A stretch of DNA of 64,000 nucleotides, taken from assembly GCA_965230295.1 (NCBI GenBank), contig OZ246001.1:832001-896000 (forward strand), read 5' to 3'. This stretch comes from Marinicella sp. (lineage in GTDB: Bacteria; Pseudomonadota; Gammaproteobacteria; Xanthomonadales; Marinicellaceae). The position numbers and the translations under genes were made by a program. Below are positions 14,172 to 36,615 of this stretch, in pieces. Position 1 is the stretch's first letter, and each line of letters begins with the position of its first letter. The notes under the pieces are model-generated. The model made no database searches. It had not been told where the DNA came from and saw only the letters and a program-made list of their open reading frames with translations.

Positions 14172-15026
14172 ATGAATCATTCTTCTAAAAACGAAGTTGG
14201 CACTTTATATGTTGTGGCCACGCCTATTGGAAACCTCAAAGACATCACCTTCAGAGCCATTGAAGTACTCAAGTCTTGTGATTTGGTGGCTTGTGAGGAC
14301 ACCCGACACAGCCAACGTTTGTTTCAAGCCCATGACATTCGCAGTAAAACCAAGTCACTGCATCAACACAATGAAAACAGTGACTCAAGAAAAATCATCG
14401 ATTTAATCCTACAAGGTCAAAATATAGCTTTGGTTTCAGATGCCGGAACACCACTGATCAGCGACCCGGGATTTCCATTGGTTAAATTGGCACACCAGCA
14501 CGGCATTTCTGTGGTTCCTATTCCTGGTCCGTCTGCCATGGTTGCTTTGATGTCTGTTGCTGCCATGAACACCCAACCTTTCACATTTCATGGTTTTTTG
14601 CCACCCAAGTCACAACAACGGCTGCATGTTCTGGAAAGCTGGTTACCGCTGAACACCACCCATGCTTTCTATGAATCCTCACACCGGATTGTTAATACTG
14701 TTGATCAAATTGTGACTGTATTCGGTCCCCAAGCAGAAGTGGCCATGGGCCGAGAATTAACGAAAAAATTTGAACAGGTGTTCAGAGGAACAGCACAAGA
14801 ACTACAATGCCTCATCAATGAGGATAAAAACCAACAAAAAGGTGAATTTGTATTGGCCGTTCAGGGCGAATCTAAAGAAACCACTGAACAGTTAACCGCC
14901 AATCAAATAAAATTGGCCAACAACTTAAAGCAACATTTGCCCCCCAAAGTGGCGGCCAAGGTCGTCGCTGATCAATTTGGCATCAACAAAAAACTGGTTT
15001 ATGAATTCATGATAAAGCAAGGATGA
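14172..15026 (+). CDS. rsmI: 16S rRNA (cytidine1402-2'-O)-methyltransferase
   Basis: GTLYVVATPIGNL, ACEDTR, SDAGTPLISDPG, RELTKKFE. Start reassigned to ATG 14172. Confidence 0.96.
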   Translation: MNHSSKNEVGTLYVVATPIGNLKDITFRAIEVLKSCDLVACEDTRHSQRLFQAHDIRSKTKSLHQHNENSDSRKIIDLILQGQNIALVSDAGTPLISDPGFPLVKLAHQHGISVVPIPGPSAMVALMSVAAMNTQPFTFHGFLPPKSQQRLHVLESWLPLNTTHAFYESSHRIVNTVDQIVTVFGPQAEVAMGRELTKKFEQVFRGTAQELQCLINEDKNQQKGEFVLAVQGESKETTEQLTANQIKLANNLKQHLPPKVAAKVVADQFGINKKLVYEFMIKQG

Positions 15027-15813
15027 ATTTAACCAATGCAGCCTCCCAACTTGGCCGATGTTGCTTAAAATACCTAAGCATCCCTTGCTTTTTCCAAACT
15101 TTGATCTGTTTGGGCAATTGTTTTGATTGGCCTTTGAGGTGTACCACTTCAACCGAAGGGTCATATAAGACATGCCCCCCGTCTTTTTGCAACCTGACGA
15201 ACAAGTCCAAATCTTCAAAGTGCAAAGGATAGCTTTCATCAAACCCTTTTATCTGTTCAAAAGCGGTTCTTTTCACCAATAAACAGGCACCATTGACTGC
15301 AGTCACTTTTATTATCCCTGCAAATTGTCCCGTATCATTGATGTTAATGCCTTGAAACCAAGACCATCGACTCAGTCCGGTCACATGAAACACGACCCGC
15401 CAGAAAGTCGGTAGCCGGCGCCTGGACGCGGCTTGCAAACCACCGTCTTCATTCAACACTCGACAGCCTATCAGGGCAGCCTTGGCATCATTTTTTAAAT
15501 TTTCAGACAACTTCTGCAGTTGTTGAACAGTCACAAAACAATCAGGATTGATTACCGCGATGAACTCAGCCTTCCCTTGCTTTGCACCCTGATTACAGGC
15601 CTTGGCAAAACCTAGATTCTCAGCATTTTTGATGATTGAGAGCGGCAAGTCCGACGGTAAATCTGCCATCGAGTCATCCACCGAAGCATTGTCAACCACC
15701 GAAATATTCAAACCTTCAGAACCGCCTTTCTGAAGGGTCTTCAGGCATTGGCCCAAGGCCTCACCCGAGTTGTGGTTCACCAAAATAACATCGATAGCAG
15801 GTATGGGGTTCAT
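15007..15813 (-). CDS. Glycosyltransferase family 2 (WbbL/RfbF-like)
   Basis: VVDNASVD, NLGFAKACNQG, INPD, GACLL, FEDLDL. ATGA overlap with the upstream gene; converges on and overlaps rsmI by 20 nt. Confidence 0.9.
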   Translation of the reverse strand: MNPIPAIDVILVNHNSGEALGQCLKTLQKGGSEGLNISVVDNASVDDSMADLPSDLPLSIIKNAENLGFAKACNQGAKQGKAEFIAVINPDCFVTVQQLQKLSENLKNDAKAALIGCRVLNEDGGLQAASRRRLPTFWRVVFHVTGLSRWSWFQGININDTGQFAGIIKVTAVNGACLLVKRTAFEQIKGFDESYPLHFEDLDLFVRLQKDGGHVLYDPSVEVVHLKGQSKQLPKQIKVWKKQGMLRYFKQHRPSWEAALVKFILALS

Positions 15814-17612
15814 TGTCCCAAACAAAATGCCCACAGTTTAGGCCACACTTCCATGGCTTCCACCACTTCTTTCAAGTCATGACGCGCTTTGGCTACACAT
15901 GATGCTGTATCCATGGTCTCATCCCAGTCTGTCAGAACAGGTGCTTGTGCAGATTTAACGGCCTTACCATTGGCTTGAATGATTTCACGCACATCGGCTT
16001 GCCAGTAAATCGGCGCATCAGGTACTTCATCAAGGATATTTTGTAATGACAACACCAGATTTGAACGGGTTTTGGTCATGTACTCATTCAAACGATTGGC
16101 CAAAGCCTGGTCTTCACAGGTACGCAAGTCATCTATGGCTGCCTTGATGTTTTCAAAACGTGCATTCACATCCAAGGTATAAATGTTGCCCAAAATTGAA
16201 AAAACATAATCCGCCACGAAGTTATTGAAGTTGGGCCTTCTTGCAATGTGATTAAAACCACTTCTTTCACGTTTACTGGTTTGGATGTGCCCCATCATCA
16301 ACGGAAAATGCAGTGAAACCTGATTGGGGTAACAACCCATCATCATGCAATTGAAAAAATGATCCTCATTTTTATTGATAGGCATCACAAATGGTGTCAA
16401 AGTACTGTTATCAAGACCCGATGGTGCGAAATTAGAAAAAGCCAAGGCTTGATAATGGGGAGAGTAGTGTAATAAATGTGACGCTTCAATGTTATCTAAA
16501 TAAGTTTCCCTGTCCTGCCAAAAAGCTTCACGCTGTTCTCCTTTGAGCAAGTACAGCCAATAATTACTTTCCGCTCTTGGGCTGCCCCATGTACCATTGC
16601 CAGTAGATTTGATGATCGAATCTTCACTTAAACGATTTAAATCCATCAAACGCCATCCATATAAATTGGAAGTGGTCTTATCTTCGCCCTCAGCCAACCA
16701 TTGTCCAAAGTGAATACCACATGCATCAACCATCTCTTGCAGTACATTTGTTTCTATCTTTTGACTCTTGTCCTTGATGTCCCTGATGTTCAAACCAAAC
16801 CCCACATCCAATGTGGCATCATCAGCCAAATCAACATTCAAAGGGTCATAATGTGCTGATTTACGTGGTTGAATCAAATAATCATCATCGAAGAATGTGA
16901 ACTTTTTACCTGCCAATGCCAACAAGGCAAAATTCCATACCCGGCCTCCGGTAAAGCCAGCTTGTTCGCTTAACAACCAATCAATTTCTTTGTGATGTTC
17001 AGTGAATTCATTTTTCAACATCGCAATGAATTGATTTTGCCATGACTGACCATGGTATTTGACATTGCACTTGGCATCCTGACAAATCTTTTGATTGGCT
17101 TCTTGTGATTTGATGTCTGAAGAATCATCAAAAACCAAAATGGTGTCATTGCCACCATGGTTCTGGAAATACTGGCTACATGAATCCAGCAACCGTTGTA
17201 AATTATCCGGTCTTTGACAAGTCCTGATCACCATACCTGCGTGTTGGATGTCTCGCTTGGGCGCATGTTTGTCTTTCACTTGATCAAGCCATTGTTGATC
17301 ACTGATCAACAATCCTTTATTTTGCAGAAAGCCCAGAACCTTTTCGATGGCTGCAGACTGACCTTTTAACTCAGGTATGTTGGCTTCAATCAACTGAATA
17401 TGCTCATGCATGGGTTTGAATTGTTGTGTCAGACCCATGGCTTGTAGTACTTGCATGGTCATCACATGATTGACACCAGTCCCATGGTCCATGAAAACCA
17501 GTTCCTCTTTTGACAGTTGTTGTACAGTGCCTGCTACTGACGCATATAAGGTCGGATCCACAGGTGCAGGTGTACTGATCTTCTGTTCGCCAAAATTAAA
17601 TTCAAATTCCAT
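15810..17612 (-). CDS. Hypothetical 600-aa cytoplasmic protein: putative RRE/PqqD-like N-terminal domain plus GT-A-fold glycosyltransferase-like domain
   Basis: GGAG RBS before ATG 17612. GT-A-like motifs RTCQRPDNLQRLLDS, ILVFDDS and GRVWNFALLALAGKKFTFFDDD. N-terminus ends LGFLQNKGLL. Confidence 0.6.
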   Translation of the reverse strand: MEFEFNFGEQKISTPAPVDPTLYASVAGTVQQLSKEELVFMDHGTGVNHVMTMQVLQAMGLTQQFKPMHEHIQLIEANIPELKGQSAAIEKVLGFLQNKGLLISDQQWLDQVKDKHAPKRDIQHAGMVIRTCQRPDNLQRLLDSCSQYFQNHGGNDTILVFDDSSDIKSQEANQKICQDAKCNVKYHGQSWQNQFIAMLKNEFTEHHKEIDWLLSEQAGFTGGRVWNFALLALAGKKFTFFDDDYLIQPRKSAHYDPLNVDLADDATLDVGFGLNIRDIKDKSQKIETNVLQEMVDACGIHFGQWLAEGEDKTTSNLYGWRLMDLNRLSEDSIIKSTGNGTWGSPRAESNYWLYLLKGEQREAFWQDRETYLDNIEASHLLHYSPHYQALAFSNFAPSGLDNSTLTPFVMPINKNEDHFFNCMMMGCYPNQVSLHFPLMMGHIQTSKRERSGFNHIARRPNFNNFVADYVFSILGNIYTLDVNARFENIKAAIDDLRTCEDQALANRLNEYMTKTRSNLVLSLQNILDEVPDAPIYWQADVREIIQANGKAVKSAQAPVLTDWDETMDTASCVAKARHDLKEVVEAMEVWPKLWAFCLGQ

Positions 17613-17614
17613 TG

Positions 17615-18487: not shown

Positions 18488-18499
18488 GCATCACCTGAT

Positions 18500-19300: not shown

Positions 19301-19301
19301 A

Positions 19302-21217: not shown

Positions 21218-22159
21218 TTATTCTTCGATGAATACTTTATATCTTTCGAATATATGTGCGATCAGTTCAGGGTTTACCTCAATTTCATGCTGTACTTTCG
21301 CATTGATGATACTTTGAAATTTTCTTTTCACAGCTTTTTTCTTGAGTTGTTGGTATATTTCAGTTTTGGCATCTGCTAATTTGCCAGGTTCTGACGGTAC
21401 AATCTTGTTAACCCTGATGATATAACGGGTACCTTTGTCGGTTAATACCTCTGGAATCACGCCCAATGGGGCATTGAACACTTTTTCCTTAAATGCATAA
21501 TTAAATTGATTCTCCCTGAATTCACCCCAATGTCCTTCATTGATACTTTTACTGGGATCAGTTGAGATTTCAGATGCTTTGATTTGGAATGATGCCTGGT
21601 CAGAAGATTTAAGTTCATTCAGTATTGCGTCTGAATCATTTGTATCAACCTCATCTAACATGATGACAGACAAATCTCTTTTGGCTGGCTTAATGAATTT
21701 AGCTTTATTCACCATGAAATACTCTTTGATCGAGTTTTTCAACATTTCTTCAGTGGTGGTTTCCTCAAGGTATGCCAACAAAGTCTTGTAATATTCTCGT
21801 TTTATGACATAAGACCTGACCGATTGTTCCATGGTTTTAGATTCTAGATCTAGCATCTCTAAGAAGACAGTTTCCGGTATCCATTCATCTTCATTGACTG
21901 TTTTAATGACATCCTTAAAACGATCCAAATCTTTAAGATCAGAATTCAGAATGTGTTGGTAAACAATGTTGATGTTCAATAAAGTGAAAACATTTTTTTC
22001 TATTTGTTGCTGTTGAACGGCAAACCCACCCCTCTTGTCTTTTTTCAACAGATATACATAAGCATCTAAATCAGACAACGGCACTTCAATGCCACCTTGT
22101 TTAACCAGGTAAGCATCCTGGTTAAACAAGGAAGAGATCAATAAGATCAATAATTTCAT
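21218..22159 (-). CDS. Exported parvulin-type peptidyl-prolyl isomerase / chaperone
   Basis: Short hydrophobic N-terminus; helical SurA-N-like region; PpiC-like motif ASEISTDPSKSINEGHWGEF...FKEKVFNAPLG. Confidence 0.75.
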   Translation of the reverse strand: MKLLILLISSLFNQDAYLVKQGGIEVPLSDLDAYVYLLKKDKRGGFAVQQQQIEKNVFTLLNINIVYQHILNSDLKDLDRFKDVIKTVNEDEWIPETVFLEMLDLESKTMEQSVRSYVIKREYYKTLLAYLEETTTEEMLKNSIKEYFMVNKAKFIKPAKRDLSVIMLDEVDTNDSDAILNELKSSDQASFQIKASEISTDPSKSINEGHWGEFRENQFNYAFKEKVFNAPLGVIPEVLTDKGTRYIIRVNKIVPSEPGKLADAKTEIYQQLKKKAVKRKFQSIINAKVQHEIEVNPELIAHIFERYKVFIEE

Positions 22160-23379
22160 AGGCCAGATTGCACCCCTTCGTTATAGAAAATGGTACATGC
22201 AAAGTTGCTACTGATTTCACATGAAGGTGGTGTGGCTAACGGATTAGGCGAATTGACATAATTCACATAATATGACTTGCCTGCTTCTAAGATACAGAAA
22301 GTACCCGGATCGTCTGTAACCACCGTTGAAAACCTTGCAGTAGAATTGGCCGCTGAAAGAGGAATCACACAAACTGCTGATTGGGTGAAGTCTCCTGGAC
22401 ACTCACTGATTGACATGGTACTTTGACTGATTTGTCTTTGAGTTGGTGCATCTTGTAAAGTGATTTTTCTTCTGTTGTTAAACGGCGGATTGTCAGCCTC
22501 TAATGAAAAACCTGACAGGGCGTAAAATTTGCTGTTTTGAATGTCTAATTCAAAATTAACGTTGTTATTTTCACCAAATGGTTGTCCTTGATTGAATTCA
22601 GTATAAGTACCTTGAACCATGTCTAAATTCGGTGGCAACACCACTGAGCTACAACTTTCATCTAAAGTATAGGTAACACCCACTGTACTGATTGCACCAT
22701 TACAATTCAGGGTCAGGGTTGTATTTTGATTGATTGTGACTGGGGACGATCCAGACGTGCCTTTTGCACCTGACCAACCTACAACAGCAGGAGAGGCACT
22801 GGCTGTACAACCAGTGGTATTGGTGGAATTCCATGCCACTGTTGCACTGGTAGAAGGTCCAACAATAGCATTTGTAGATTGTGAGTTAACTGTAAAGAGG
22901 GTGATAGAGGGTGACCCGCCGCCACCGCCTGATTGTTCGGTCAATAAAAATGATTTTGTTGTGGTTTGCGCTGCAGCATTTTGGCATGACAATTCCAAAG
23001 TGGCAGGCAAGGTAGTCACTGTCACTGATTGAGAATAACTGCCATCTGCAGCTGTTTTTGCTCCATTCCAAGTTGCAACACCGCTGGTGGTATCAGCCGT
23101 ACAACTGGCTGCATAGGCAACACTCCAACTGACGGTGATTGAACTACCTGTGGTGATGTCATAATCACTTGGATAGAATCCCAGAATTACGGGGGTGTTT
23201 TGATTACCACTGACAATAAAATGCTCACCAACTGTGGTAACTGACACATCACCAGTTACAAAATCAATTTCTACATTTTCGGTGATTTCTACTTCTTCGT
23301 TGTTGTTGGTAAATACCAATTTTTCAGCCGCAGCGGACTGAATGAACAAAACGAAAACTAATATTAACGCGTTTTTCAT
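22156..23379 (-). CDS. Secreted Ser/Thr/Cys-rich protein with two internal Ig-like repeats
   Basis: Signal peptide MKNALILVFVLFIQSAAA; 10 Cys; repeated W..C-T-A..W-[NS]-GAK..TL.L.C units separated by SGGGGG. Confidence 0.8.
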   Translation of the reverse strand: MKNALILVFVLFIQSAAAEKLVFTNNNEEVEITENVEIDFVTGDVSVTTVGEHFIVSGNQNTPVILGFYPSDYDITTGSSITVSWSVAYAASCTADTTSGVATWNGAKTAADGSYSQSVTVTTLPATLELSCQNAAAQTTTKSFLLTEQSGGGGGSPSITLFTVNSQSTNAIVGPSTSATVAWNSTNTTGCTASASPAVVGWSGAKGTSGSSPVTINQNTTLTLNCNGAISTVGVTYTLDESCSSVVLPPNLDMVQGTYTEFNQGQPFGENNNVNFELDIQNSKFYALSGFSLEADNPPFNNRRKITLQDAPTQRQISQSTMSISECPGDFTQSAVCVIPLSAANSTARFSTVVTDDPGTFCILEAGKSYYVNYVNSPNPLATPPSCEISSNFACTIFYNEGVQSGL

Positions 23380-23445
23380 GGGTTTTCTCATTTCATCTAT
23401 AAACTTCGGATTATACAAGATGTTGTGTTAATTTTTTATTCAAAA

Positions 23446-23476
23446 AAAAAGGACAAGATCAGATCTTGTCCTTTTT
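23446..23476 (-). terminator. Strong intrinsic terminator immediately after the putative S-layer gene
   Basis: Perfect inverted repeat AAAAAGGACAAGATC-A-GATCTTGTCCTTTTT; T9 tract on the minus strand; about 20 nt past the stop codon. Confidence 0.85.
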
Positions 23477-23495
23477 ATTTTCATGTACTCAGGTA

Positions 23496-24905
23496 TTATT
23501 GAGAAACAACATTACCTTTGTGTACGAACAGACCAGCGTACTGAGCCAGTAAGCCAGCACCAGCATTACCATTGGTAAATTGCTGTGCTGAGAAACCAGT
23601 TACAGGTAAGCCCAAGTAAGCAGGACCTGCAGTAGGAGCTGTAACAAATGCCAAATCACTGAAAGACATGTTAGCCCAACCATTCTCAGTAGCAGCACCA
23701 CTTGGAGTGGTAACAGTTACTAAGTTGTCAGAACCCATGATTGATGATTCTGCACCAGCAGCACCGCCAGGTAACATGAACTCAACAACGTTGACTTCTT
23801 TACACAAGCTTGGGTTTGCACCAGCAGGAGGACGTGGAGATACACCGCCAACTGTCAAGATTTCCAATTGCTCTTCTCTGTCCCAAATAGTTAATTCAAA
23901 CTCGTGACAAGAGTTAACACCATCCCAAACATCATTGAATGGAGGAATTGCAGCAGCAGGAGCTACGTCAACGTGGAAACGCTTAGTTGGGAAAGAAATA
24001 ACCCACTCAGATTTACCAGCAACCAATGAATCTAAAGCGTACTCATTGTAAACAGATTGTCTGGTGAACAATGAAGAAATAGACTCAGCACCTGTAGCGT
24101 AAGTAGAAGTTTGTGCAGCACCTTCAAAGAAAACTGTAGAGCTTTCAATACCTTGTGCTAACGATGGGAACAAGCTGCCTGGCTCAGAGTGAGTACCCAG
24201 ACCTAACTCCCAAAACTCATCAACTGCAATCGCATCATAAGTCATGGCCAAACCTTCAGCTACATTTACGATAGAAGCAGAACCGAACAAACCGCCAGTT
24301 ACTAAATCTTCATCAGCCAATGTGTCATAAAGACCATTGTCAGACCAATCGCCTTCGATGGTGCCACAAGAAGCTGGAACACCAGATCCACCGTGATCAG
24401 CAGCAGTAACAGTACCACCATTGAAAGTAGCCATTTCGATGATTTCGAAGTGACCATCAGTAGCACGACGCATGCTCATGTTAGTAGGATCAAGGTCAGC
24501 ATCGATTGTGAATGGCAAGAACTCTTGGCCACCTTTAATCAAGAAAGGAGCACAAGAAGTGTCAGTTGTAACGTGAGCAGCAGAAGGCTCACCAACGTGA
24601 CCAGCTTGAGTTGAGTTGGTAGGAACCAAAGCACCAGTCCAAACGTCAAAAGCTGACAAGTAAACGTTAAAGTCAAGAACCTCTAAAGAGTTTTCACCTT
24701 CCAAGAAACGTACTTTAACAGCTTTGGTGTCAGCAGTCGTGTTAACAACTGAGTACAAAGTGTTCAAACCGTTATTAACTGAGTAATAAGGGTAAATCAG
24801 TACTTCACCAGTACCTTCTGGGTTAACAAACTGTTGTGCATTTGCCATGCCCGCGACACCCGCGATACCAGCAACAACAGCCATAGTTAGTTTATTTTTT
24901 TTCAT
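23496..24905 (-). CDS. Probable S-layer / major cell-surface protein (resembles the NpdA-like 'cell surface protein' family)
   Basis: Sec signal (AGMANA|QQ) and GGAG RBS. Motifs GTGEVLIYPYY, KAVKVRFLEG..S.EVLDFNVYLS..DVWTG, W.ISFPTKR, DREEQ, LC.EVNV, GLPVTGF. Acidic and G/A/T/S-rich; strong codon bias (GCT, GGT, TCT, AAC, TTC). Confidence 0.75.
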   Translation of the reverse strand: MKKNKLTMAVVAGIAGVAGMANAQQFVNPEGTGEVLIYPYYSVNNGLNTLYSVVNTTADTKAVKVRFLEGENSLEVLDFNVYLSAFDVWTGALVPTNSTQAGHVGEPSAAHVTTDTSCAPFLIKGGQEFLPFTIDADLDPTNMSMRRATDGHFEIIEMATFNGGTVTAADHGGSGVPASCGTIEGDWSDNGLYDTLADEDLVTGGLFGSASIVNVAEGLAMTYDAIAVDEFWELGLGTHSEPGSLFPSLAQGIESSTVFFEGAAQTSTYATGAESISSLFTRQSVYNEYALDSLVAGKSEWVISFPTKRFHVDVAPAAAIPPFNDVWDGVNSCHEFELTIWDREEQLEILTVGGVSPRPPAGANPSLCKEVNVVEFMLPGGAAGAESSIMGSDNLVTVTTPSGAATENGWANMSFSDLAFVTAPTAGPAYLGLPVTGFSAQQFTNGNAGAGLLAQYAGLFVHKGNVVSQ

Positions 24906-24992
24906 TTCTAACTCCAAATTTAATAAAAATATCAGGGCTATTTTAAAATATCCCCGCTCATATGAACGAAGCTATACAAGATAGCAAAGTGA

Positions 24993-25021: not shown

Positions 25022-25072
25022 GCACTTTTTATTATTTTTTGATTAAAAATGTACTTGCAAATACCGTTATTT

Positions 25073-27626: not shown

Positions 27627-28333
27627 TGTTTATTTCCTTTCGCGGCATTTGCCCTCATTTGCGCCCTGCGCTCAGCTATTTTCTTTCTGATTTCCTCAGC
27701 ACTGTTTTTTTGTGCTTTTTGCTTATTTGAGTCAGACTTGTTCTTATTCTTTCCATTGTTTTTACCTTTGTTGTTTCTGCCCTTATTTTTGGCTGCATTC
27801 CTTGTCGCTTTGCCCAGCTGGCCACTGAAGACTTCAAGTTCCAACTCAACAGGCTCCTCTCCTTCTGCAACAAATGTAACTGCCCTTGGTTTGATGTCAC
27901 CAACCACCCACAATCCTTGATCTCCAGGCAAAGGCATGCCTTGTTTTAAAGTAATGCGCTCTCGACTTAATTCATCAAAAACCATGGCATAACTGTTTTC
28001 CTCCGTGATGATGATACTGGTCACTTTGGCTTTCAAAGGTTCAGCTTCTATCTCAGGTTCTTTTTCTTCCACTTCAAGATCCTCTGGCGGAGCCACATAA
28101 GGGGTGCGATCCATACTGAACAAAGGTGCATCTGTAATTTGCACAATGGCCTTGTCATCAATCACGGCAGTTTCGACATCTTCAACATCCAGCTTATTCA
28201 ATGTTGAAGCATCAAAAACTTCTGCTTCAAGTGACGCAGTTCCACGCCCCCAACCAAACATCTGCATGGCAGCCAACAACAGCAAAATGCCAATCAAAAC
28301 CAGCAATGTATTGGTGAATAAATTATTTTTCAT
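27623..28333 (-). CDS. gspN: Type II secretion protein XpsN-like (GspC equivalent)
   Basis: N-terminal TM helix, PLFSMDRTP, C-terminal IRKKIAERRAQMR as in XpsN; lies between M and D. Confidence 0.7.
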   Translation of the reverse strand: MKNNLFTNTLLVLIGILLLLAAMQMFGWGRGTASLEAEVFDASTLNKLDVEDVETAVIDDKAIVQITDAPLFSMDRTPYVAPPEDLEVEEKEPEIEAEPLKAKVTSIIITEENSYAMVFDELSRERITLKQGMPLPGDQGLWVVGDIKPRAVTFVAEGEEPVELELEVFSGQLGKATRNAAKNKGRNNKGKNNGKNKNKSDSNKQKAQKNSAEEIRKKIAERRAQMRANAAKGNKQ

Positions 28334-28934
28334 CGTCTTTTTCAATTGGATTTTTTAAATACGCATACAAATCAAATCGAATCTCTAAATTTTCTGGGGC
28401 TGCTTGAGCGGCGTTTTTGCGATAGCGATTAACATTGCGAGATTCAACCCGCAAATCGCTGACAAACAAAGAAGGGGTGTTCTCTTCTATCAACTCAACA
28501 ATTTTGACAAAGATTTCATATTGGCAGCGCATTCTAACACGCAAAGTAATTTTTTCAAATTGCTCAGGCTCTCTGTCTTGGGTGGGTGATTGGCTGACAA
28601 TTTGACATTTGGCGGTTTCATCGGTTTGTTGATTCACGATGTTCTTAAAAATTGAAGTGATCTCAGCATTGCCTAAGTTTTTTGAATCCGCTTGTAAAAA
28701 CTCATTGTTTGAGCCCACTGCTTTTTTGACATCATCCAATAGTTTTCGCAAATCCGGAGTTTTGGCCGCTTCATTGATGTACTGCTGTCGCGACTCATTC
28801 AATGAAGTGATTTCTTCATTCAAATCTGCATGAGCCACAAAAAACCAATGAAAAAACAAAAAGTATACTGTCGTCAACACCAACAACAAAACCAAAATGG
28901 CAGACCACCGACTGACCCTGGGATCAAGATTCAT
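28323..28934 (-). CDS. gspM: Type II secretion protein M
   Basis: Single TM plus coiled coil; IEENTPSLFVSDL..LEIRFDLYAYL; operon position. Confidence 0.85.
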   Translation of the reverse strand: MNLDPRVSRWSAILVLLLVLTTVYFLFFHWFFVAHADLNEEITSLNESRQQYINEAAKTPDLRKLLDDVKKAVGSNNEFLQADSKNLGNAEITSIFKNIVNQQTDETAKCQIVSQSPTQDREPEQFEKITLRVRMRCQYEIFVKIVELIEENTPSLFVSDLRVESRNVNRYRKNAAQAAPENLEIRFDLYAYLKNPIEKDDEK

Positions 28935-30075
28935 TGCCTGTCTCCTCTTCATTGTTGTCTTTAAAATCAGACCTGATGGTGAACTTTTCTTTGTTGGTTC
29001 GTGGGTCCTGGGTCACGTTGCCAATAATTTCAGGTTCATGCCACATGGTTGATTGATTTAAAATAGGAATCAAAGCATTTGCATTGTCTGACTGTCCTAC
29101 CACTTCTAACCGTTCTTTATCTATCATGATTCGAGTCAAGTAAGTATTCATCGGAATTTTTCGGGTCAGTTCATTGAACATCAACAAGCGACTTGGGGTG
29201 TTCTTTTTGAGGTTGCCTAAGAAATTGGCTGCTTGAATGGACTCATTCAACTGGTTTTCAATCAGCTTGGCCCTTCTGGCATCTTTTCGTAATTCAGTGA
29301 CCTGGGATTCCAATGACTCAATCTTGACTTTCTTATTATCCAAAGACGAGTACATCACAAACCACAACAACACCAAGGCGACCACAGTCAAACCGGCATT
29401 CCATTTTATACTGGTCCAATCTTTTTTCTTGCGGACTTCCTTAGGCAGTATATTGATACCCAAGGCTTGAGGTGCTTCTTGGCTACCCATATTGACATCA
29501 ATACCAGACAATTGAACCCCTTTGGCTTCAAACAAAGCAACCAATGCATGTAAATCCTGCTTCTTAATGGCGCAGATGGTTATGGGGAATTTCTCACTGC
29601 CTTCAACCATTTCTCCTTTGATGTAAGCGAACACCACATCTTCTGCTTTGAACGGTATGTACTTATCCAATTCAAATGTCAACACAGATTCAATGTCATT
29701 AACTATAGCCACAGGCATGGCAACATTGCGAACCAATACTTTAGACTCATCCAATAAACAAGTGACTTCGGTGGCCAATTCAGCGGTGGCTAAATGGTGA
29801 TTCAACTGATGCCACCATTCTTTTCCTTCAACAGAATCATCAAAAGTCAGTGTGTTCATGGCACCACCTTCCTGTTGCCAAATTTTGACGTCTTCATCTT
29901 TACCCTGAGTATCGGTTAAAAACAGAGCCAATGATCTGGGAAACAATGTGGCTTGGTATTCATTGGGAACCATGGCCTTGAGTTCACTTGTCCACCAAAC
30001 CATAAATGCATGGATGCTTGATTCGTGATACCACTGCACCATGGGTTCAGTAAATTTTTCTATATAAGTTGTCAT
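28924..30075 (-). CDS. gspL: Type II secretion protein L (PilN domain)
   Basis: FMVWW, LTFELDKYIPF, INILP before the TM helix, PilN-like periplasmic domain. Confidence 0.88.
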   Translation of the reverse strand: MTTYIEKFTEPMVQWYHESSIHAFMVWWTSELKAMVPNEYQATLFPRSLALFLTDTQGKDEDVKIWQQEGGAMNTLTFDDSVEGKEWWHQLNHHLATAELATEVTCLLDESKVLVRNVAMPVAIVNDIESVLTFELDKYIPFKAEDVVFAYIKGEMVEGSEKFPITICAIKKQDLHALVALFEAKGVQLSGIDVNMGSQEAPQALGINILPKEVRKKKDWTSIKWNAGLTVVALVLLWFVMYSSLDNKKVKIESLESQVTELRKDARRAKLIENQLNESIQAANFLGNLKKNTPSRLLMFNELTRKIPMNTYLTRIMIDKERLEVVGQSDNANALIPILNQSTMWHEPEIIGNVTQDPRTNKEKFTIRSDFKDNNEEETGNES

Positions 30076-30953
30076 TTGTGCTCGTTATCTCTCCAACGTA
30101 CCACCCGATAGGGTCGTCCTTGTAAATTACCACCCATTCTGATGGTGGCATCAATTTGGGCAAATTGTTTGTTTGGTAATGTCGCCTTGCTGATGATGCT
30201 GAAAGTTGTTCCGCCTCCCCTGAACTGACCAGAATATCCTTCAGCCAGAAGCGGCAACTCCATATTGACATCATCGATGTTGTGTCTTTCTGTTAAGTAG
30301 TTATCGGCCATGTCTGCCGTTATGCCATCAATCGACATCAACACTTCTTTAGGAGCGAATGCCAGGTTGATGTTTTTCCTGCCAGAATAAACTGTCAAAG
30401 CCGGTTCGATTTTTTTATAAAGCTCGTAACTGATGTCCATCACTTGGATCAATTCAGGCACAGTATCAAAAGGCGCATCCTTCGCACCATGTTGATAACC
30501 AGCTGCAAAATAATCCCCATCTTCGGCACCGGCTAATCGAATTTCTTCATCGGCATCTTTCCAATCAAGAATTTTATCAACCAATCCAATCGCTTCATCA
30601 TAATCGATGCCTACTGAGGCAAACAAACCAATCAAAAGTTCCTCTCCAGCTTGGTTCAAATCAATTTTACCTGATTCGTCAGTCACCTGAATTTCAATTT
30701 GGGCCCCTTCCAATTCGAACTTGTGCACCCGGCCATCAGCAATCCACCTTGTTTCAGGATCAGGGTTTCTGAGCTCGTACACTGTTCTGTTTAATCCGGC
30801 TTCTGCCAAAAACCTGGCTTGGGTTTCATTGAACAAAATACGTGACTGTAAACTTTCTGTCCTGGCGGACAAAGCAAAACTACCCGCAATGACACTCATC
30901 AACAAAGCCACCCACAAGACCAGGACCAATGCAATGCCATGCTGCTTGTTCAT
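30072..30953 (-). CDS. gspK: Minor pseudopilin K
   Basis: QHGIALVLVLW, DESGKIDLN, ILDWKDAD. Confidence 0.93.
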   Translation of the reverse strand: MNKQHGIALVLVLWVALLMSVIAGSFALSARTESLQSRILFNETQARFLAEAGLNRTVYELRNPDPETRWIADGRVHKFELEGAQIEIQVTDESGKIDLNQAGEELLIGLFASVGIDYDEAIGLVDKILDWKDADEEIRLAGAEDGDYFAAGYQHGAKDAPFDTVPELIQVMDISYELYKKIEPALTVYSGRKNINLAFAPKEVLMSIDGITADMADNYLTERHNIDDVNMELPLLAEGYSGQFRGGGTTFSIISKATLPNKQFAQIDATIRMGGNLQGRPYRVVRWRDNEHK

Positions 30954-31651
30954 TGAGTATCTCCAGCTGTTCTGCGGTTATTCTGCAACATGTTTAAGGT
31001 ACTGTTTCTGCGTCGGCTTGATGTACTTGAACCATCAACCTGTACAGCCACCTGAAGCAGCGGCCAACGCTCTTTTGCGGACCGCTGCATTTCCAAATCA
31101 AGCTGCACCATCAATGGCATAGCCATTGGGTTTTCCAGTTCATTGACCCACTCTGTTGGCAAGCCTTCTTCATCCACTTCGATGAAGGCAAATGCGCCAT
31201 CTCTTATGTTTTCTAACAACACAATGGGCTCTGCTGTATCAAAGGCGGATTGCTCATCCTCGTCGTCATAATTACTGACCAGCCCGTGGGTAAACTGTAA
31301 CAGTTTGCCGCCATCGGCATTAACCAATTCAAGCTTTTGTATGTGAGGGCCGCCAGAACCAAGGTAACCTGGCATTTGTGCCACAAAGGTGATCGAATTT
31401 TCATCACCCATAAATTTCAGCAGTTCACCTTCATCTGAGAAAGCCACGCCAATACCCATGGCCCTGGATATTTGGTGTCGAATGATGCCCTGAATGACTC
31501 GCATTTCATTGATGGCAGTGATCCGCTGCTCACCTTTTTCAGCCGTTCTGCGACCTGAGTCTATACCTGAAAAGATCATGGCCATGATCATGGCCAACAG
31601 TGTAAACACCACAATCACTTCTATTAAAGTAAAACCAGCGTTGCGTTTCAT
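30950..31651 (-). CDS. gspJ: Minor pseudopilin J
   Basis: Prepilin motif AG|FTLIEV; position after I. Confidence 0.88.
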   Translation of the reverse strand: MKRNAGFTLIEVIVVFTLLAMIMAMIFSGIDSGRRTAEKGEQRITAINEMRVIQGIIRHQISRAMGIGVAFSDEGELLKFMGDENSITFVAQMPGYLGSGGPHIQKLELVNADGGKLLQFTHGLVSNYDDEDEQSAFDTAEPIVLLENIRDGAFAFIEVDEEGLPTEWVNELENPMAMPLMVQLDLEMQRSAKERWPLLQVAVQVDGSSTSSRRRNSTLNMLQNNRRTAGDTQ

Positions 31652-32100
31652 TTGCCCAATCCTTGTGCTTCAGAGTAATCTGGGGTCATGGCCTTGAGGG
31701 TGAAAAAGTCGACACTGCGGCGATTGTCATGCCCGTCAAACCAACTCAATGTCAATTTAACTTTAAACAATTCCACTGGAGCAAAATCCATTTCCACATT
31801 GCCTTCGTATGGCACATCATAAGGCTGGATCACCACATCCCAGTCCACATCTTCTTCAAAGCTTCCAGAAACAGAACCTTCTTCAACGGGTATGATCAAT
31901 CCCACTTCATCCATTTTACTTTGGGCCAACAAGGCAATTTTAGAACGCTCTGAAGATTTAATGGTGTTGGTACTGGAATTGGATAAAATTTCCAACACCA
32001 CCATAAAAGTCATGGCCAATATCGTGAACGATGCAATGACTTCAATCAAGGTAAAACCCTGGTTGGCCAGTGGTGGCTTTATGTTTGATCTGCGCATCAT
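31648..32100 (-). CDS. gspI: Minor pseudopilin I
   Basis: QG|FTLIEVIASF, ALLAQSKMDE. Confidence 0.88.
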   Translation of the reverse strand: MMRRSNIKPPLANQGFTLIEVIASFTILAMTFMVVLEILSNSSTNTIKSSERSKIALLAQSKMDEVGLIIPVEEGSVSGSFEEDVDWDVVIQPYDVPYEGNVEMDFAPVELFKVKLTLSWFDGHDNRRSVDFFTLKAMTPDYSEAQGLGK

Positions 32101-32543
32101 ATCTCGGTGTCTTTGAACAACCTGATTTCACCAGTTAACCAAGCCACATTGATGCGCCAAAAACGCTCATCATAAATCAAAGTCACTCGACCACCGGTTG
32201 AACTGCCATCAGAAAAAAAACGAAACCCCGCTTGATCATCAGCTGGGACTTCTGATGCAGCCGCATAAACCTTCAGCTCCATGCCTTCTGGCAACATAAC
32301 CTTGGGTCGACCAGGTGCTTGGTAAGATTTATCACTGACATTGATCATCAAGCGTTGTTCTTTGTGTTTAACCACCGCCTGTGAACGGGTGTAGCGCAAA
32401 GCCGCCACCAGATCTTTACTGGCGCCTCTGATCTTGCTGGCTTTCAGAGAGCCTGACATGTTGAAGGCAACGGTGCCAGCCAACACGGCCAGCATCACCA
32501 ACACCACCAAAACTTCTATCAATGTAAAACCAGATCGACGCAC
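32097..32543 (-). CDS. gspH: Minor pseudopilin H
   Basis: SG|FTLIEVLVVL, FRFFSDGSSTGG, VAWLTG; GTG start. Confidence 0.9.
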   Translation of the reverse strand: MRRSGFTLIEVLVVLVMLAVLAGTVAFNMSGSLKASKIRGASKDLVAALRYTRSQAVVKHKEQRLMINVSDKSYQAPGRPKVMLPEGMELKVYAAASEVPADDQAGFRFFSDGSSTGGRVTLIYDERFWRINVAWLTGEIRLFKDTEI

Positions 32544-32558
32544 TGTGATGCCTGTTAC

Positions 32559-32972
32559 TTACTGCCAATTACCGATGTCTGCAGCCAATTTCTCGCCGCC
32601 TGGACTCTTGTCTTTACCGTATGAATAGATATCAAACGATTGACCATGTTGGCTGTTGGCAGAAAAGTGGTATGGCTCGCCCCAAGGATCTTTCAAATCC
32701 TTTTCTTTGACGTAAGGGCCCATCCACATGGAATCACCATTGTCGTTGTACAACTCACTTAAACTGTCGGGCATGTTGCCTGTGTCTAAATAAAATTCGC
32801 TGACTGATTGCGATAATTTTTGCACCATAATCTTGGCTTCTTTGTATTTCGCTTTGTCTTGACCTCCGGTTACATTGGAAACCACCAGACCAAATATCAC
32901 GGCCAATATGGTCATCACCACCAGCACCTCAATCAAGCTGAAACCTTGCTGTTTTCTCTTATTGTTCATCAT
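32559..32972 (-). CDS. gspG: Major pseudopilin G
   Basis: QG|FSLIEVLVV, WMGPY, KDPWG, DIYSYGKD..PGG...DIGNW. Confidence 0.95.
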   Translation of the reverse strand: MMNNKRKQQGFSLIEVLVVMTILAVIFGLVVSNVTGGQDKAKYKEAKIMVQKLSQSVSEFYLDTGNMPDSLSELYNDNGDSMWMGPYVKEKDLKDPWGEPYHFSANSQHGQSFDIYSYGKDKSPGGEKLAADIGNWQ

Positions 32973-32977
32973 AAATA

Positions 32978-34189
32978 TTATCCTACTAATTCACTCATGT
33001 TCATCATCGGCATCAGGATGGCAAACACAATGGTAAAAATAAAGCCTGCCAAAATCAGTACCAATACGGGCACCAATACCGACAGCATGCGTTCAATGGT
33101 ATTTTTGACTTCACCATCATAAGTATCTGATGCCCTCACCAGCATCTCATCTAAATTGCCTGTTTCCTCACCTACGCTCAATAATTGTTGTGCCAGTTTT
33201 GGAAAGGCTTCTTCTTCGGACAACGCATCTGACAGCGGTGCCCCATGTTTGACTTTTTCTGTGGCCTCCGTGATGGCCTTTAAGATGACCGTGTTGTTGA
33301 TCACTTTTTTTGCCACCGATAAACCCGTTAACAATGGCACACCGCTGTCAGCCAGTGTACCCAGTGTACGGGTGAATTTAGCAGTTTCAACACGCGTAAT
33401 CAATTCGCCGAACAGGGGTAAATTAAGCATGCGTTGGTCCCAGTTATACCGAAATTCGGGTTCTTTGAGTTTTTGCTTAAACAACACCACCACGACGATG
33501 ATCAGCAGCAACAAAACCCACCAAAAACTTTGCACCACAGCAGCGGCCGCAAAGACTATTTGGGTGATCAATGGCAATTCAATGTTGGCATCTTCGAACA
33601 AAGGCTTGAACTTAGGCACCACTTTGGCCAGCAAGATGAACAAAGAACCCACTGCCAACACCATTAAGATGGCTGGATAAATCATGGCTGAAACCACCGA
33701 ATCCCTGAGTTCTTTAGAGCTTTTCAAATAATCACTCAAGCGCTGTAATGACACTTCTAAGGTGCCACCCATCTCGCCAGCCCGGACCATGTTGGTGTAC
33801 ATCGTTGAAAACACCCCATGTTGGTCTTCCAGCGCATCTGACAAAGATCCACCACCACGGACTTTATCACGCACCTGCTCAACCATGTTCCTGACTTTTT
33901 CATCATCGGTCAGATCAATCATCACCGACAAAGAACGATCCAGTGGCATACCTGAATTCAACAAAGTTGATAGCTGTTCAGTGAAAAACCCGACTTGTTT
34001 TTGGGAGATCTTACTGCGCCTGGCCAACAAGTTTTCCAGTGAAAATCCAGGCTTAAGCTCTTTGGCGGATACCGGCATGTTGCCGGCTTCTTGAATTTTA
34101 GCAATCACTTCGGCTTGCGAGGCCGCTTCTAAATGACCTTCTAACTGTTCACCGGTTGGGGTGATTGCTTTGTAGATAAACTGTGCCAT
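32978..34189 (-). CDS. gspF: Type II secretion inner-membrane platform protein F
   Basis: AGEMGG, SAMIYP, VGEETGNL; two GspF domains. Confidence 0.95.
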   Translation of the reverse strand: MAQFIYKAITPTGEQLEGHLEAASQAEVIAKIQEAGNMPVSAKELKPGFSLENLLARRSKISQKQVGFFTEQLSTLLNSGMPLDRSLSVMIDLTDDEKVRNMVEQVRDKVRGGGSLSDALEDQHGVFSTMYTNMVRAGEMGGTLEVSLQRLSDYLKSSKELRDSVVSAMIYPAILMVLAVGSLFILLAKVVPKFKPLFEDANIELPLITQIVFAAAAVVQSFWWVLLLLIIVVVVLFKQKLKEPEFRYNWDQRMLNLPLFGELITRVETAKFTRTLGTLADSGVPLLTGLSVAKKVINNTVILKAITEATEKVKHGAPLSDALSEEEAFPKLAQQLLSVGEETGNLDEMLVRASDTYDGEVKNTIERMLSVLVPVLVLILAGFIFTIVFAILMPMMNMSELVG

Positions 34190-35919
34190 TATTCGTGTGA
34201 TACCCTGATTACTTCTTCAAAGCTGGTGTCACCAGCCAAACATTTCAACAAACCATCTTCATACATCGTTAACATGCCTTCTGCTTGTGCTTGTTGTTGC
34301 AACTCACCTGCCGTTGCACCTTTCATCACCATGCGCCTGAGTTCCTCAGACATGGTCAAGCATTCCAGAATCGACATCCTGCCAGAATACCCTGTCGGAT
34401 TTTCTTCTGATGGCCTGGGACGATAAAAGAATATTTCTTTGTCATCTGAAAAACGCTGTAAGTTCAACTCGTCAACCATTTCTGGCATCACCTGATACCG
34501 TTCCATGCTGTTCTTATCCAGGCGGCGCACCAGTCGTTGGGCCAACAACCCATTGACCGTTGAAGTTAATAAATAGTCTTCAACACCCATATCAACCATC
34601 CGGGTGATACCGCCGGCAGCTGAGTTGGTGTGAATGGTTGACAATACCAAGTGCCCAGTTAAGGCTGATTGAATGGCGATTTTGGCCGTTTCTAAATCAC
34701 GCATCTCACCAATCATGATGATGTCCGGATCTTGTCTTACAATGGCCCTCAAGGCAGACGAGAAATCCAGGCCGATGGAAGCTTTGGCTTGAATTTGATT
34801 GATACCTGTCAACTGATACTCTACCGGATCTTCAACCGTAATGATTTTGCGATCTTCGGTGTTAAGCCGCTGCAATGCAGTGTACAAGGTGGTGGTTTTA
34901 CCACTACCGGTTGGCCCAGTCACCAACAGAATCCCATGCGGCATTTCCAGCACTTTTAAAAACGGATTCAAGGTGTGGTCGCGAAAACCCAACTTATCAA
35001 AATCAAAAACAATACTTTCCCGGTCCAAGATACGCATCACCACTGACTCACCATATGAAGTAGGGACAGTCGACACCCTGAGATCCAACTCTTTACCCTG
35101 AACCCGCAGCATGATACGTCCATCTTGCGGTAACCGACGTTCAGCAATGTTCAGCTTAGCCATGATCTTGATACGCGAAATTACCGCTGCAGTTGATCTC
35201 GCTGGCGGCGATTCAACTTCATGTAACACGCCATCCAGGCGGTAACGAACTTTCAATCGGTTCTCAAAAGGTTCTATGTGAATGTCGGACGCTCGAGATT
35301 CTACAGCTCGCTGCATAATCATGTTCACCAATCGAATCACCGGCGCCTCACTGGCCAAGTCTTTCAGGTGTTCAACATCTTCTACTTCACCGCCTTCATC
35401 TGACAGGCCTTCAACCAACTGACCCATGGCAGATTTACCACCGCCATAATATCGCTCTATGGCATTTTCCACATCCGATGGTAAGCCTATCTTGATTTCC
35501 AAGTCCTTTTCAGCAACCATATTAATGGCTTTGGTTAAGTACTCTTCATAAGGATAAACCATCACCACAGTCAACTTTTCCTCATCTTCATCAATTGGTA
35601 CAAATTGGTTCTCACGCATGTATCTGATTGGAAACTCCACATCAACAGATGTACTTTCTGGCAAATCTTTATCACTGAGGATGGGCAGATCCATCAATTC
35701 ATTGATTGACATGGCCACATCACGCTCAGAAGCCAGACCCAACCTGACCAACAATGGCACCAAAGAAACGCCAAAGCTTTCTTTATTCAATCGCAATCCG
35801 CGTTGCAAGTCTTCTTCTTTCAAACGCCCTTGGTCAACCAAGTATTGACTCAGTTGTTGTTCAAAAGTGAGCGGCTTTACTGGCTCAGTTTGTGGTTCTT
35901 CAATTACCTTTTCAGACAT
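34189..35919 (-). CDS. gspE: Type II secretion ATPase E (XpsE-like)
   Basis: ASDIHIEP, ERRLPQDGR, GPTGSGKTTT, EDPVE, RQDPD, GHLVLSTIHTN. Confidence 0.97.
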   Translation of the reverse strand: MSEKVIEEPQTEPVKPLTFEQQLSQYLVDQGRLKEEDLQRGLRLNKESFGVSLVPLLVRLGLASERDVAMSINELMDLPILSDKDLPESTSVDVEFPIRYMRENQFVPIDEDEEKLTVVMVYPYEEYLTKAINMVAEKDLEIKIGLPSDVENAIERYYGGGKSAMGQLVEGLSDEGGEVEDVEHLKDLASEAPVIRLVNMIMQRAVESRASDIHIEPFENRLKVRYRLDGVLHEVESPPARSTAAVISRIKIMAKLNIAERRLPQDGRIMLRVQGKELDLRVSTVPTSYGESVVMRILDRESIVFDFDKLGFRDHTLNPFLKVLEMPHGILLVTGPTGSGKTTTLYTALQRLNTEDRKIITVEDPVEYQLTGINQIQAKASIGLDFSSALRAIVRQDPDIIMIGEMRDLETAKIAIQSALTGHLVLSTIHTNSAAGGITRMVDMGVEDYLLTSTVNGLLAQRLVRRLDKNSMERYQVMPEMVDELNLQRFSDDKEIFFYRPRPSEENPTGYSGRMSILECLTMSEELRRMVMKGATAGELQQQAQAEGMLTMYEDGLLKCLAGDTSFEEVIRVSHE

Positions 35920-36006
35920 AAATTTTCATTTTTTCAATTGTTGCTTGGTACACATACCATTGCTTGTTTCACTCAGACAGTACATGAACTTTAAAGTTTC
36001 TTATGT

Positions 36007-36615
36007 TTACTGACTGTTTTGTTTACTATTGTACTGAGTTATTTCCTCAATAAAACTTCTATTCAATAAAACCCAGGCCATGATGGGCACCACTGCCGGG
36101 ATGATCAAATAGGACAGTTGATACATGGCTGCCACCAGATTGTGACTGATTCCTGTTTGATTGATGGCTTGAAAAGCATCTCCACCACCTGAGAACAACA
36201 AAGACTTACATGTGTCCCAAAATACGCCATTGGCTTGAACCAGACAAATCAGCACATAACCCAATGAGATTTGTATCGCCTTGTTGTAACTCTTCAGAGC
36301 AGGCACAGACAAAACCAAACCTGCAAGTAAGGGTAAGCCATAACCATACTTCATGGGGTTAACCGTTACTTCTATGACGGCCAGTTGGCTCCCCTGGTGT
36401 GGCAGTGATTCAGGAAAAACCAATGTTTGTACTTGAAACATAAAGTTTTGCTGAATGATGCCATTAAATAAATCAGGCTGCCATAGTTGCATCACCCATG
36501 CAGACAACCATTTGATGGGTAACACCAAAACTGGTGCCGCCATAAACCACAAAAAAAAGCACAAAGGTAAATACAACAATGCACTGATCAACAGGGTCTT
36601 AATTGGCGATTTCAT
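36007..36615 (-). CDS. Membrane protein resembling the exosortase H-associated membrane protein family
   Basis: LPLCFFLW N-terminal TM, NPMKYGYGLPLLAGLVL motif, YQLSYLIIP..VP..AW C-terminal TM. Family recognised from memory. Confidence 0.65.
   Translation of the reverse strand: MKSPIKTLLISALLYLPLCFFLWFMAAPVLVLPIKWLSAWVMQLWQPDLFNGIIQQNFMFQVQTLVFPESLPHQGSQLAVIEVTVNPMKYGYGLPLLAGLVLSVPALKSYNKAIQISLGYVLICLVQANGVFWDTCKSLLFSGGGDAFQAINQTGISHNLVAAMYQLSYLIIPAVVPIMAWVLLNRSFIEEITQYNSKQNSQ

Follow-up and report, generated by a model that had tools for sequence, protein, structure and literature searches.

NpdA is the subunit of a bacterial surface layer (S-layer) first found in Delftia, where deletion of its gene abolishes the layer (Shetty et al. 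2011, PMC3110197). Gajbhiye et al. (2023, PMC10765051) characterized the NpdA S-layer by knockout and cryo-electron microscopy in Delftia and Paracidovorax citrulli, placed npdA downstream of a 12-gene gsp cluster, and listed orthologues in 62 betaproteobacterial and 49 gammaproteobacterial species. The genera listed include Rhodanobacter, Rudaea, Tahibacter, Dokdonella, Lysobacter sp., Wenzhouxiangella, Nitrotoga and Halioglobus; Marinicella is absent from the list. Here, we analyzed a stretch of 64,000 nucleotides from Marinicella sp. (GCA_965230295.1, contig OZ246001.1; G000:C1:832001-896000 in our numbering), hereafter the window, which is part of a 4.0-Mb single-contig genome. Its minus strand carries a Type II secretion system (T2SS) cluster, a gene for an acidic secreted protein and a set of glycan export and synthesis genes. 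We conclude, with a probability of about 75%, that this locus represents the NpdA S-layer system in Marinicella. Systems of this kind are already described, and Marinicella provides a new member of the NpdA family.

The 469-residue precursor encoded downstream of the T2SS genes starts with a 23-residue signal peptide ending in ANA, and the mature protein of 446 residues has four conserved cysteines, a pI of 4.14 and a computed mass of 46.8 kDa, near the ~45 kDa estimated in a preliminary description of this DNA. It matches no Pfam or NCBIfam family, its named homologues in a large protein collection are all "hypothetical", and the Protein Atlas returned only unnamed or "cell surface protein" clusters. 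BLASTP nevertheless aligned it with a Delftia tsuruhatensis homologue at 32 % identity over 347 residues (E 2e-33). The Comamonadaceae copies were reached by a profile search of Burkholderiales genomes and a scan of named genomes, and were compared by hhalign with A1, a profile of 26 window-type sequences. A1 aligned with 12 Comamonadaceae NpdA sequences from the signal peptide to the C-terminal motif (100 %, E 1.2e-46, 428 columns), and with the protein P0165 over 424 columns (99.9 %, E 8.9e-33). P0165 is named Paracidovorax citrulli, bears the UniProt identifier A1TUQ1_PARC0 and, without 25 residues, has a mass of 52,393.6 Da; the mass of the P. citrulli NpdA that was deleted and imaged is printed as 52,394 Da (PMC10765051). 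By organism name, identifier and mature mass, P0165 is the published NpdA. In addition, scans for relatives of the window protein found the same genera as the published NpdA list. The S-layer call made in the preliminary description is supported by this full-length homology, by the gsp-npdA synteny and by the extreme codon adaptation reported below. By contrast, its statement that no example of this combination had been characterized in this lineage is outdated: NpdA together with a T2SS is already characterized, and orthologues are listed in Rhodanobacter, Rudaea and kin.

The neighborhood of npdA was then counted in two scans, one with the A1 profile (78 loci) and one with Delftia-type sequences (42 loci, 39 of them matched by tblastn), the denominators being loci with enough upstream sequence or with >9 kb downstream. 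A gspD-like gene lies upstream of npdA at 56 of 60 loci in the A1 scan and 35 of 37 in the Delftia-type scan, and a homologue of the small lipoprotein gene at 55/60 and 21/37. Downstream and on the same strand, wzm and wzt are present at 48 of 49 and 34 of 35 loci, and a homologue of the methyltransferase gene at 44/49 and 19/35. The four A1 loci without gspD are paralogue arrays, and the exceptions to wzm plus wzt are a single A1 locus (L117) and one Delftia-type locus at which wzt alone was matched (L188). These counts overstate independence because the loci are kin. Xanthomonadales and Burkholderiales loci share the gene order although their proteins are only 25-40 % identical, and the arrangement, which recurs in related loci of both, is far from chance.

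Within the order, G145, the sole NpdA-positive genome of family f2, shows the same order as the window: purL, the gene for an exosortase H (XrtH)-associated protein, gsp, lipoprotein, npdA, wzm, wzt, a glycosyltransferase of family 2 (GT2), methyltransferase, a 619-aa gene and a further GT2. Three members of the order that lack NpdA (G061, G093, G107) retain orthologous gspE-D genes, with gspE 58-63 % identical, and their xps locus has no XrtH-associated gene, lipoprotein, npdA, wzm or wzt. The placement of the cluster beside purL, likened in the preliminary description to that in Xanthomonas, holds for the window and for G145 and fails for NpdA-less G061, in which purL was not matched within about 8 kb upstream of gspE. 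The 619-aa glycosyltransferase-like protein was found in 88 of the 151 genomes of the order, all 88 being NpdA-positive by our reading of the tables; this query finds none of two genomes in family f6 and one of 19 in f7, although both families have NpdA.

In the window, the program-made list of open reading frames (ORFs) from which genes were called shows 22 consecutive minus-strand genes, from 36615 down to 15007; families were assigned with Pfam and NCBIfam models (Table 1). The preliminary description had counted 21 genes, while its coordinates, its named genes and their common direction stand, and the functions that it predicted are borne out by family matches and translations. The cluster begins directly downstream of purL, with the XrtH-associated gene starting 9 nt past it, and rsmI converges on it from the other side. 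Intergenic gaps are mostly -29 to +15 nt; larger ones lie 5' of gspE (87 nt) and before and after the S-layer gene (167 and 77 nt). The 167-nt gap holds a promoter-like site, recognized by its match to the consensus, and a GGAG ribosome-binding site is placed 8 nt before the ATG at 24905. Directly 3' of the gene lies a bidirectional intrinsic terminator, whose stem is the longest among 26 terminator-like sites scanned in 17001-37000. The cluster is therefore not one operon: because the S-layer gene carries its own promoter-like site and terminator, the 22 genes form at least three transcription units.

Codon usage sets the same gene apart. Measured against 29 reference ORFs from the str, S10, spc and alpha operons, npdA has a codon adaptation index (CAI) of 0.806, above the medians of the ribosomal reference (0.747) and of the genome (0.645). 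This places it at the 99.9th percentile of 3088 ranked gene candidates and second among ORFs of at least 200 aa, which, taken as a proxy, suggests that NpdA may be highly abundant. Only the T2SS-linked copy shows this extreme bias. The AlphaFold model of the protein is all-beta (predicted local distance difference test score, pLDDT, 89.5; predicted template modeling score, pTM, 0.89). When two copies were modeled together, the interface score ipSAE reached 0.88 vs 0.01 for the best control, the runs shared at least 92 % of contacts, and pLDDT was at least 90; among proteins of solved structure, 20 of 30 pairs and 1 of 23 single chains reached the ipSAE mark. The N- and C-terminal segments with the highest conservation form the predicted interface. 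The modeling supports, and does not show, self-association of NpdA.

Table 1. Features of the Marinicella locus and candidate exosortase H substrates elsewhere in the genome. Positions refer to the window unless preceded by G000 (genome coordinates); a dot marks a bidirectional feature.
Feature	Position	Strand	Basis
XrtH-associated membrane protein, 202 aa, first gene of cluster	36007..36615	-	NF041730 equivalog, 163.4 vs cut-off 35 bits
Xps-type T2SS block	25482..35919	-	Pfam T2SSE, T2SSF, T2SSG, GspH, T2SSK, PilM/PilN-like L, T2SSM_b, Secretin
gspE	34189-35919	-	Pfam and NCBIfam GspE, 637 vs cut-off 630 bits
gspF	32978-34189	-	best model XpsF, 435 vs 650 bits, below cut-off
gspG	32559-32972	-	NCBIfam GspG, 97 vs cut-off 89 bits
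gspH	32097-32543	-	best model XpsH, 121 vs 160 bits, below cut-off
gspI	31648-32100	-	best model XpsI, 69 vs 150 bits, below cut-off
gspJ	30950-31651	-	family match
gspK	30072-30953	-	Pfam T2SSK
gspL	28924-30075	-	Pfam PilM/PilN-like L
gspM	28323-28952	-	GspM_XpsM, 110 vs cut-off 60 bits
240-aa ORF at GspN/C (XpsN) position	27623-28345	-	transmembrane segment; position only
secretin gspD	25482-27626	-	NCBIfam GspD, 455 vs cut-off 351 bits
small lipoprotein, lipobox LVGC after signal peptide	25073..25492	-	translation; between gspD and S-layer gene
promoter-like site TTGCAA-18-AATAAT	25031..25060	-	consensus scan, consensus match only; inside 167-nt gap 5' of S-layer gene
NpdA-family S-layer protein, 469-aa precursor	23496..24905	-	BLASTP, hhalign to NpdA
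intrinsic terminator, 14-pair stem and T-run	23446..23476	.	directly 3' of S-layer gene
Cys/Thr-rich secreted protein, two Cys-bracketed repeats	22156..23418	-	translation
parvulin-type peptidyl-prolyl isomerase, hydrophobic N-terminus	21218..22159	-	Rotamase_3, E 1.3e-8
wzm	20462-21217	-	ABC2_membrane, 33.8 bits
wzt with C-terminal Wzt_C glycan-binding domain	19302-20462	-	ABC_tran, 73.3 bits; Wzt_C, 32.4 vs cut-off 30.4
GT2	18500-19300	-	Pfam
S-adenosylmethionine (SAM) methyltransferase	17615-18487	-	Methyltransf_11, E 2.6e-26
619-aa glycosyltransferase-like protein	15810-17669	-	sub-threshold GT2 match only
second GT2	15007-15834	-	Pfam
PVPV-tail ORFs	G000 982792-983415, 2778439-2783760, 3056-3868, 820214-821107, 3946541-3948502		

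The T2SS genes code for the ATPase E, the platform protein F, the pseudopilins G to K, the proteins L and M and the secretin D, all in one cluster. The 240-aa ORF between gspM and gspD has no Pfam or NCBIfam match, and its "gspN" label reflects position only. The cluster is Xps-like by gene order and best models, yet lies outside the curated Xps equivalogs, since its XpsF, XpsH and XpsI matches are below the curated cut-offs. For gspH, I, J, K, L and M and for the 240-aa ORF, BLASTP of the genome (E <= 1e-4) gave no additional copy. As the T2SS is retained in NpdA-less relatives, it is not S-layer-specific. From these comparisons, it is the order's Xps-type system, probably acting also as a general secretion machine rather than as a dedicated exporter.

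These observations suggest how the locus would work. NpdA would be produced at very high levels from a transcription unit of its own, cross the inner membrane by Sec and fold in the periplasm, probably aided by the parvulin-type isomerase encoded two genes downstream; the adjacent Xps-type T2SS would then pass it through the outer membrane, and it would self-assemble on the cell surface. An isomerase gene likewise lies directly upstream of wzm in a Rhodanobacter metagenome-assembled genome (MAG) and in D. tsuruhatensis (E 1.1e-29 in the latter). Meanwhile, the GT2 enzymes and the 619-aa glycosyltransferase-like protein would build a polysaccharide on the cytoplasmic face. A methyl cap, probably added by the SAM methyltransferase, would be read by the C-terminal domain of Wzt, with export via Wzm/Wzt, and the glycan, ligated to lipid A-core by a ligase encoded elsewhere, would be the likely anchor of the lattice. 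Among the glycan genes of the locus no kinase domain was seen, and the candidate chain terminator is the methyltransferase. The small lipoprotein gave an AlphaFold2 model (pLDDT 87.4) with an NTF2-like fold in Foldseek (YchJ, 1.5e-5; PBP2a N-domain). We also considered a pilotin role for it; the model is NTF2-like, and no pilotin appears among the 50 ranks listed.

The glycan half of this scheme bears on the coupling to a dedicated surface glycan put forward in the preliminary description. Outside the locus, the genome has a single Wzy_C-family ligase-type gene (G000 2544127-2544588) and a second ABC-2 glycan cluster (G000 about 2367865-2379476, at 2.37 Mb), which encodes Wzm, a Wzt without C-terminal domain, an FkbM-type methyltransferase, an AT3-SGNH acyltransferase, a sulfotransferase, a GT4 and a glycerophosphotransferase-like gene product. 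Reassembly of the Delftia S-layer protein is reported to need lipopolysaccharide (LPS) (Shetty et al. 2011 citing Engelhardt, PMC3110197). Because the accessory genes travel with npdA, because a second Wzm/Wzt cluster and the Wzy_C gene lie elsewhere and because LPS is needed in Delftia, a dedicated anchoring glycan appears to be the most economical reading. That part of the earlier proposal is plausible; glycosylation of the protein itself, its other branch, is considered below. As a separate observation, the 619-aa gene, taken as its longest ORF, begins with a TTG that overlaps the methyltransferase gene by 55 nt (17615-17669), and several relatives align the first ~20 residues of the query across a stop; the true start is probably further downstream.

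The first gene of the cluster connects the locus with exosortase H. The XrtH-associated protein is encoded by a single copy in the genome, before gspE; this position recurs in G145 and, by coordinates, in four other genomes, and is the one seen in Xanthomonadales. The xrtH gene itself lies 1.55 Mb away (G000 2414702-2415169; TIGR04177, 163 vs 86 bits), and no conserved xrtH neighbors were found across six genomes. XrtH and NpdA occur together. Among 151 Xanthomonadales genomes, 121 have XrtH, 120 NpdA and 119 both, leaving two with XrtH only (G124, G137) and one with NpdA only (G050); both genes are thus present in 119 of the 122 genomes carrying either. The two families of mixed presence agree genome by genome: in f2, G145 alone has both, and in f12 the two genes occur in the same 7 of 18 genomes. 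In 301 Burkholderiales genomes, XrtH scores over its cut-off in 17, and 16 of these also carry NpdA, with one XrtH-only genome (G740) and no NpdA-only genome (both in 16 of the 17 carrying either). A class-wide sample of 400 genomes, with at most four NpdA candidates scored per genome, gave 13 with XrtH over the cut-off and 12 with NpdA: 7 with both, 6 with XrtH only and 5 with NpdA only, four of the latter being weak partial matches. From the co-occurrence in these three samples, XrtH occurs without NpdA, and NpdA rarely without XrtH. Furthermore, XrtH and its associated protein were present in all ten named NpdA genomes tested; their genes are adjacent in Nitrotoga and four Comamonadaceae, and on separate contigs in Acidovorax delafieldii.

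NpdA itself was rejected as an XrtH substrate, since neither the 11 copies in the genome nor 16 orthologues bear a C-terminal transmembrane tail. IPTL-CTERM substrates were sought without result in the genome (TIGR04174, no match at E <= 0.1; IPTL-like regular expression, 0), and the mid-cut XrtH protein model NF033207 had no match over its cut-off. Five signal-peptide ORFs, one of them a 1773-aa SdrD-like adhesin, end in a PVPV-type motif followed by a transmembrane segment and basic residues, and for two of them the XrtH mid-cut model gives weak matches that stay below its cut-off (E 3e-4 and 0.069). These five ORFs are candidate exosortase H substrates with a variant signal. A precedent exists for an S-layer protein with an IPTL-CTERM signal, in Methylomirabilis lanthanidiphila (PMC8671808). 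By title or abstract, we found no paper linking NpdA with exosortase H, parvulin or glycan genes, and nothing relevant on exosortase H / XrtH; the main text of PMC10765051 does not contain the words glycosyl, lipopolysaccharide, exosortase or isomerase, and its Supplementary Figure S5, on gene neighborhoods, may show the downstream genes. The XrtH-associated protein and exosortase H are part of the same co-inherited set. A wider proposal, which we put forward tentatively and at somewhat less than even odds, is that the T2SS, the NTF2-like lipoprotein, NpdA, the parvulin, the Wzm/Wzt pathway and exosortase H with its associated protein form one fixed co-inherited system across Xanthomonadales and Burkholderiales, in which XrtH would process IPTL- or PVPV-tail surface proteins mounted on the same glycan or lattice as NpdA. 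If true, exosortase H would gain a concrete, testable cellular role tied to S-layer biogenesis.

Several observations weigh against assigning the locus to an NpdA S-layer system. Four conserved cysteines are unusual for S-layer proteins. The genome encodes ten further NpdA paralogues, 33-54 % identical, each with its own signal peptide, several in tandem arrays of two or three (e.g. G000 2432775-2436986). Their codon adaptation is ordinary (7.5th to 64th percentile), and because of these ordinary-codon copies the NpdA family is not confined to one lattice protein; the paralogues could be alternative or condition-specific surface proteins. CAI is, moreover, a mere proxy for abundance. Structure comparison is of limited help: the N-terminal domain (residues 25-224) resembles 1nc7 (Z 8.6, root-mean-square deviation 2.5 A, 105 aligned residues) and galectin-like beta-sandwiches (Z about 5), the likeness to 1nc7 being that of a generic beta-sandwich confined to this domain. 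Foldseek with the S-layer model found no match in the PDB at E <= 0.001, and the family profile, searched against PDB sequences, returned two chance matches only (E 0.0054) and no solved relative. On the side of the machinery, the T2SS is kept by relatives without NpdA, the parvulin match in the window is weak (E about 1e-8), and the locus genes include no initiating transferase or ligase by Pfam, no genome-wide search for an initiating transferase having been made. Finally, the T2SS dependence of NpdA is named as future work in PMC10765051.

Part of this evidence would suit an abundant secreted or surface protein that forms no lattice in Marinicella, beside ordinary O-antigen genes, in an order that is inherited rather than functional. 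The ten paralogues fit such a protein, kin share gene order by descent, and one of 16 additional NpdA-bearing cultures imaged had no NpdA-like layer (PMC10765051). However, the order is kept between two orders of bacteria despite the low protein identity, the glycan genes are missing at the xps locus of the three NpdA-less genomes that keep the T2SS, and all genomes with the 619-aa protein are, by our reading, NpdA-positive. The extreme codon bias is confined to the T2SS-linked copy, and the second Wzm/Wzt cluster would serve other glycans. We regard this lattice-free reading as highly improbable. An NpdA lattice exported by a T2SS dedicated to it, like sps beside vapA in Aeromonas salmonicida, would be in keeping with the tight, conserved gsp-npdA linkage and with the two gsp clusters of P. 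citrulli, one of which lies beside npdA (PMC10765051). In Marinicella, the lack of a second gspH-M or 240-aa ORF copy and the orthologous cluster of NpdA-less relatives make a dedicated exporter unlikely.

The remaining question is whether the S-layer protein itself bears the glycan, as the preliminary description allowed: an oligosaccharyltransferase would move the capped glycan exported by Wzm/Wzt onto NpdA, as in Gram-positive S-layer glycoproteins. The combination present here, a methyltransferase together with Wzm/Wzt and a Wzt_C domain that reads caps, is an architecture used for S-layer glycans as well as for O-antigens, and the lone Wzy_C-family gene could encode either a ligase or a transferase of the PglL type. 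NpdA of Delftia and P. citrulli runs at >150 kDa on sodium dodecyl sulfate gels (PMC3110197, PMC10765051), but the authors take this band as an oligomer (PMC10765051). Our dimer model has a large protein-protein interface. The locus has no gene for such a transferase, and the LPS requirement for reassembly fits anchoring (PMC3110197). Glycosylation of NpdA is without support from these data, and we consider it improbable. An NpdA S-layer anchored on a surface glycan is the reading that we prefer.

Other genes and loci complete the picture. The Cys/Thr-rich protein, whose 407 residues include 10 Cys and 101 Ser+Thr, matches neither Pfam nor NCBIfam models, and its best score in the Protein Atlas is 0.87, with Ig/PKD-like leads only. 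Its gene, inserted between npdA and the parvulin gene, is specific to the lineage and weakly conserved in Marinicellaceae and a few Lysobacterales MAGs; the Rhodanobacter MAG has a different 370-aa ORF at this position and Delftia has no gene there. Other Marinicella genomes gave 2 to 15 NpdA matches. At L147 (G387:C2:141458-144760), in a single genome of the class, the NpdA profile is matched by three ORFs (717-928 aa) over no more than its first ~100 residues (E 7.5e-27 to 8e-17), and the N-terminal NpdA segment may occur in other architectures. Elsewhere in the genome (G000 2740401-2743707), fusA and the adjacent tuf are each split into two overlapping ORFs in different frames, which may be assembly indel errors or broken copies; an intact 397-aa ORF with high CAI lies at G000 2726193-2727383.

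For the window alone, the result is a gain in annotation, from "hypothetical protein" to probable S-layer protein of Marinicella. With it, the known range of NpdA reaches the order's deepest family and takes in a marine genus outside the published list. Beyond this, the comparative pattern names candidate genes for NpdA anchoring and folding and for the role of exosortase H. In the literature searched we found no mention that npdA is accompanied, in Xanthomonadales as well as in Comamonadaceae, by genes for the lipoprotein, the parvulin, Wzm/Wzt and the methyltransferase, that these accessory genes are absent from the xps locus of the three NpdA-less genomes examined, or that NpdA co-occurs almost perfectly with exosortase H. 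The fixed set of accessory genes and the link to exosortase H, both drawn from comparative genomics, appear to be the more interesting part.

How does the locus compare with the systems already known? With the exosortase H / IPTL-CTERM system, the genome shares XrtH and the XrtH-associated protein, both over their cut-offs, whereas the window NpdA has no C-terminal sorting signal. With the Xps system of Xanthomonadaceae, it shares the gene order E F G H I J K L M N D and XpsF, XpsH, XpsI and XpsM as best NCBIfam models; unlike it, the cluster is bordered by the XrtH-associated gene and by S-layer and glycan genes. The A-layer locus of Aeromonas salmonicida (wzm - T2SS - vapA - wzt) likewise brings together an S-layer gene, a T2SS cluster and an ABC-2 O-antigen pathway (PMC4483657). 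There, however, the S-layer/T2SS block lies between wzm and wzt and the T2SS is regarded as dedicated (PMC4483657); the comparison was made by gene functions and arrangement.

A further comparison is with the NpdA system of the Comamonadaceae Delftia acidovorans Cs1-4 and Paracidovorax citrulli AAC00-1. Identity to it is about 30 %, and Marinicella adds the Cys/Thr-rich gene and 10 paralogues. The XrtH-associated gene, which heads the gsp cluster in Marinicella, lies beside xrtH in Comamonadaceae and Nitrotoga. The glycan genes also differ: D. tsuruhatensis has npdA, the isomerase, wzm, wzt(Wzt_C), two methyltransferases, two acyltransferases and a GT2+GT4 fusion. In Marinicella, the lattice is a prediction, and this genus is not known to make nanopods. 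In both, nonetheless, a full-length homologous, acidic protein of about 47-52 kDa, with a signal peptide and no Pfam domain, is encoded just downstream of gspD and a small lipoprotein gene and is followed by isomerase, wzm, wzt(Wzt_C) and methyltransferase genes, and exosortase H with its associated protein is present in all five Comamonadaceae genomes tested, as it is in Marinicella.

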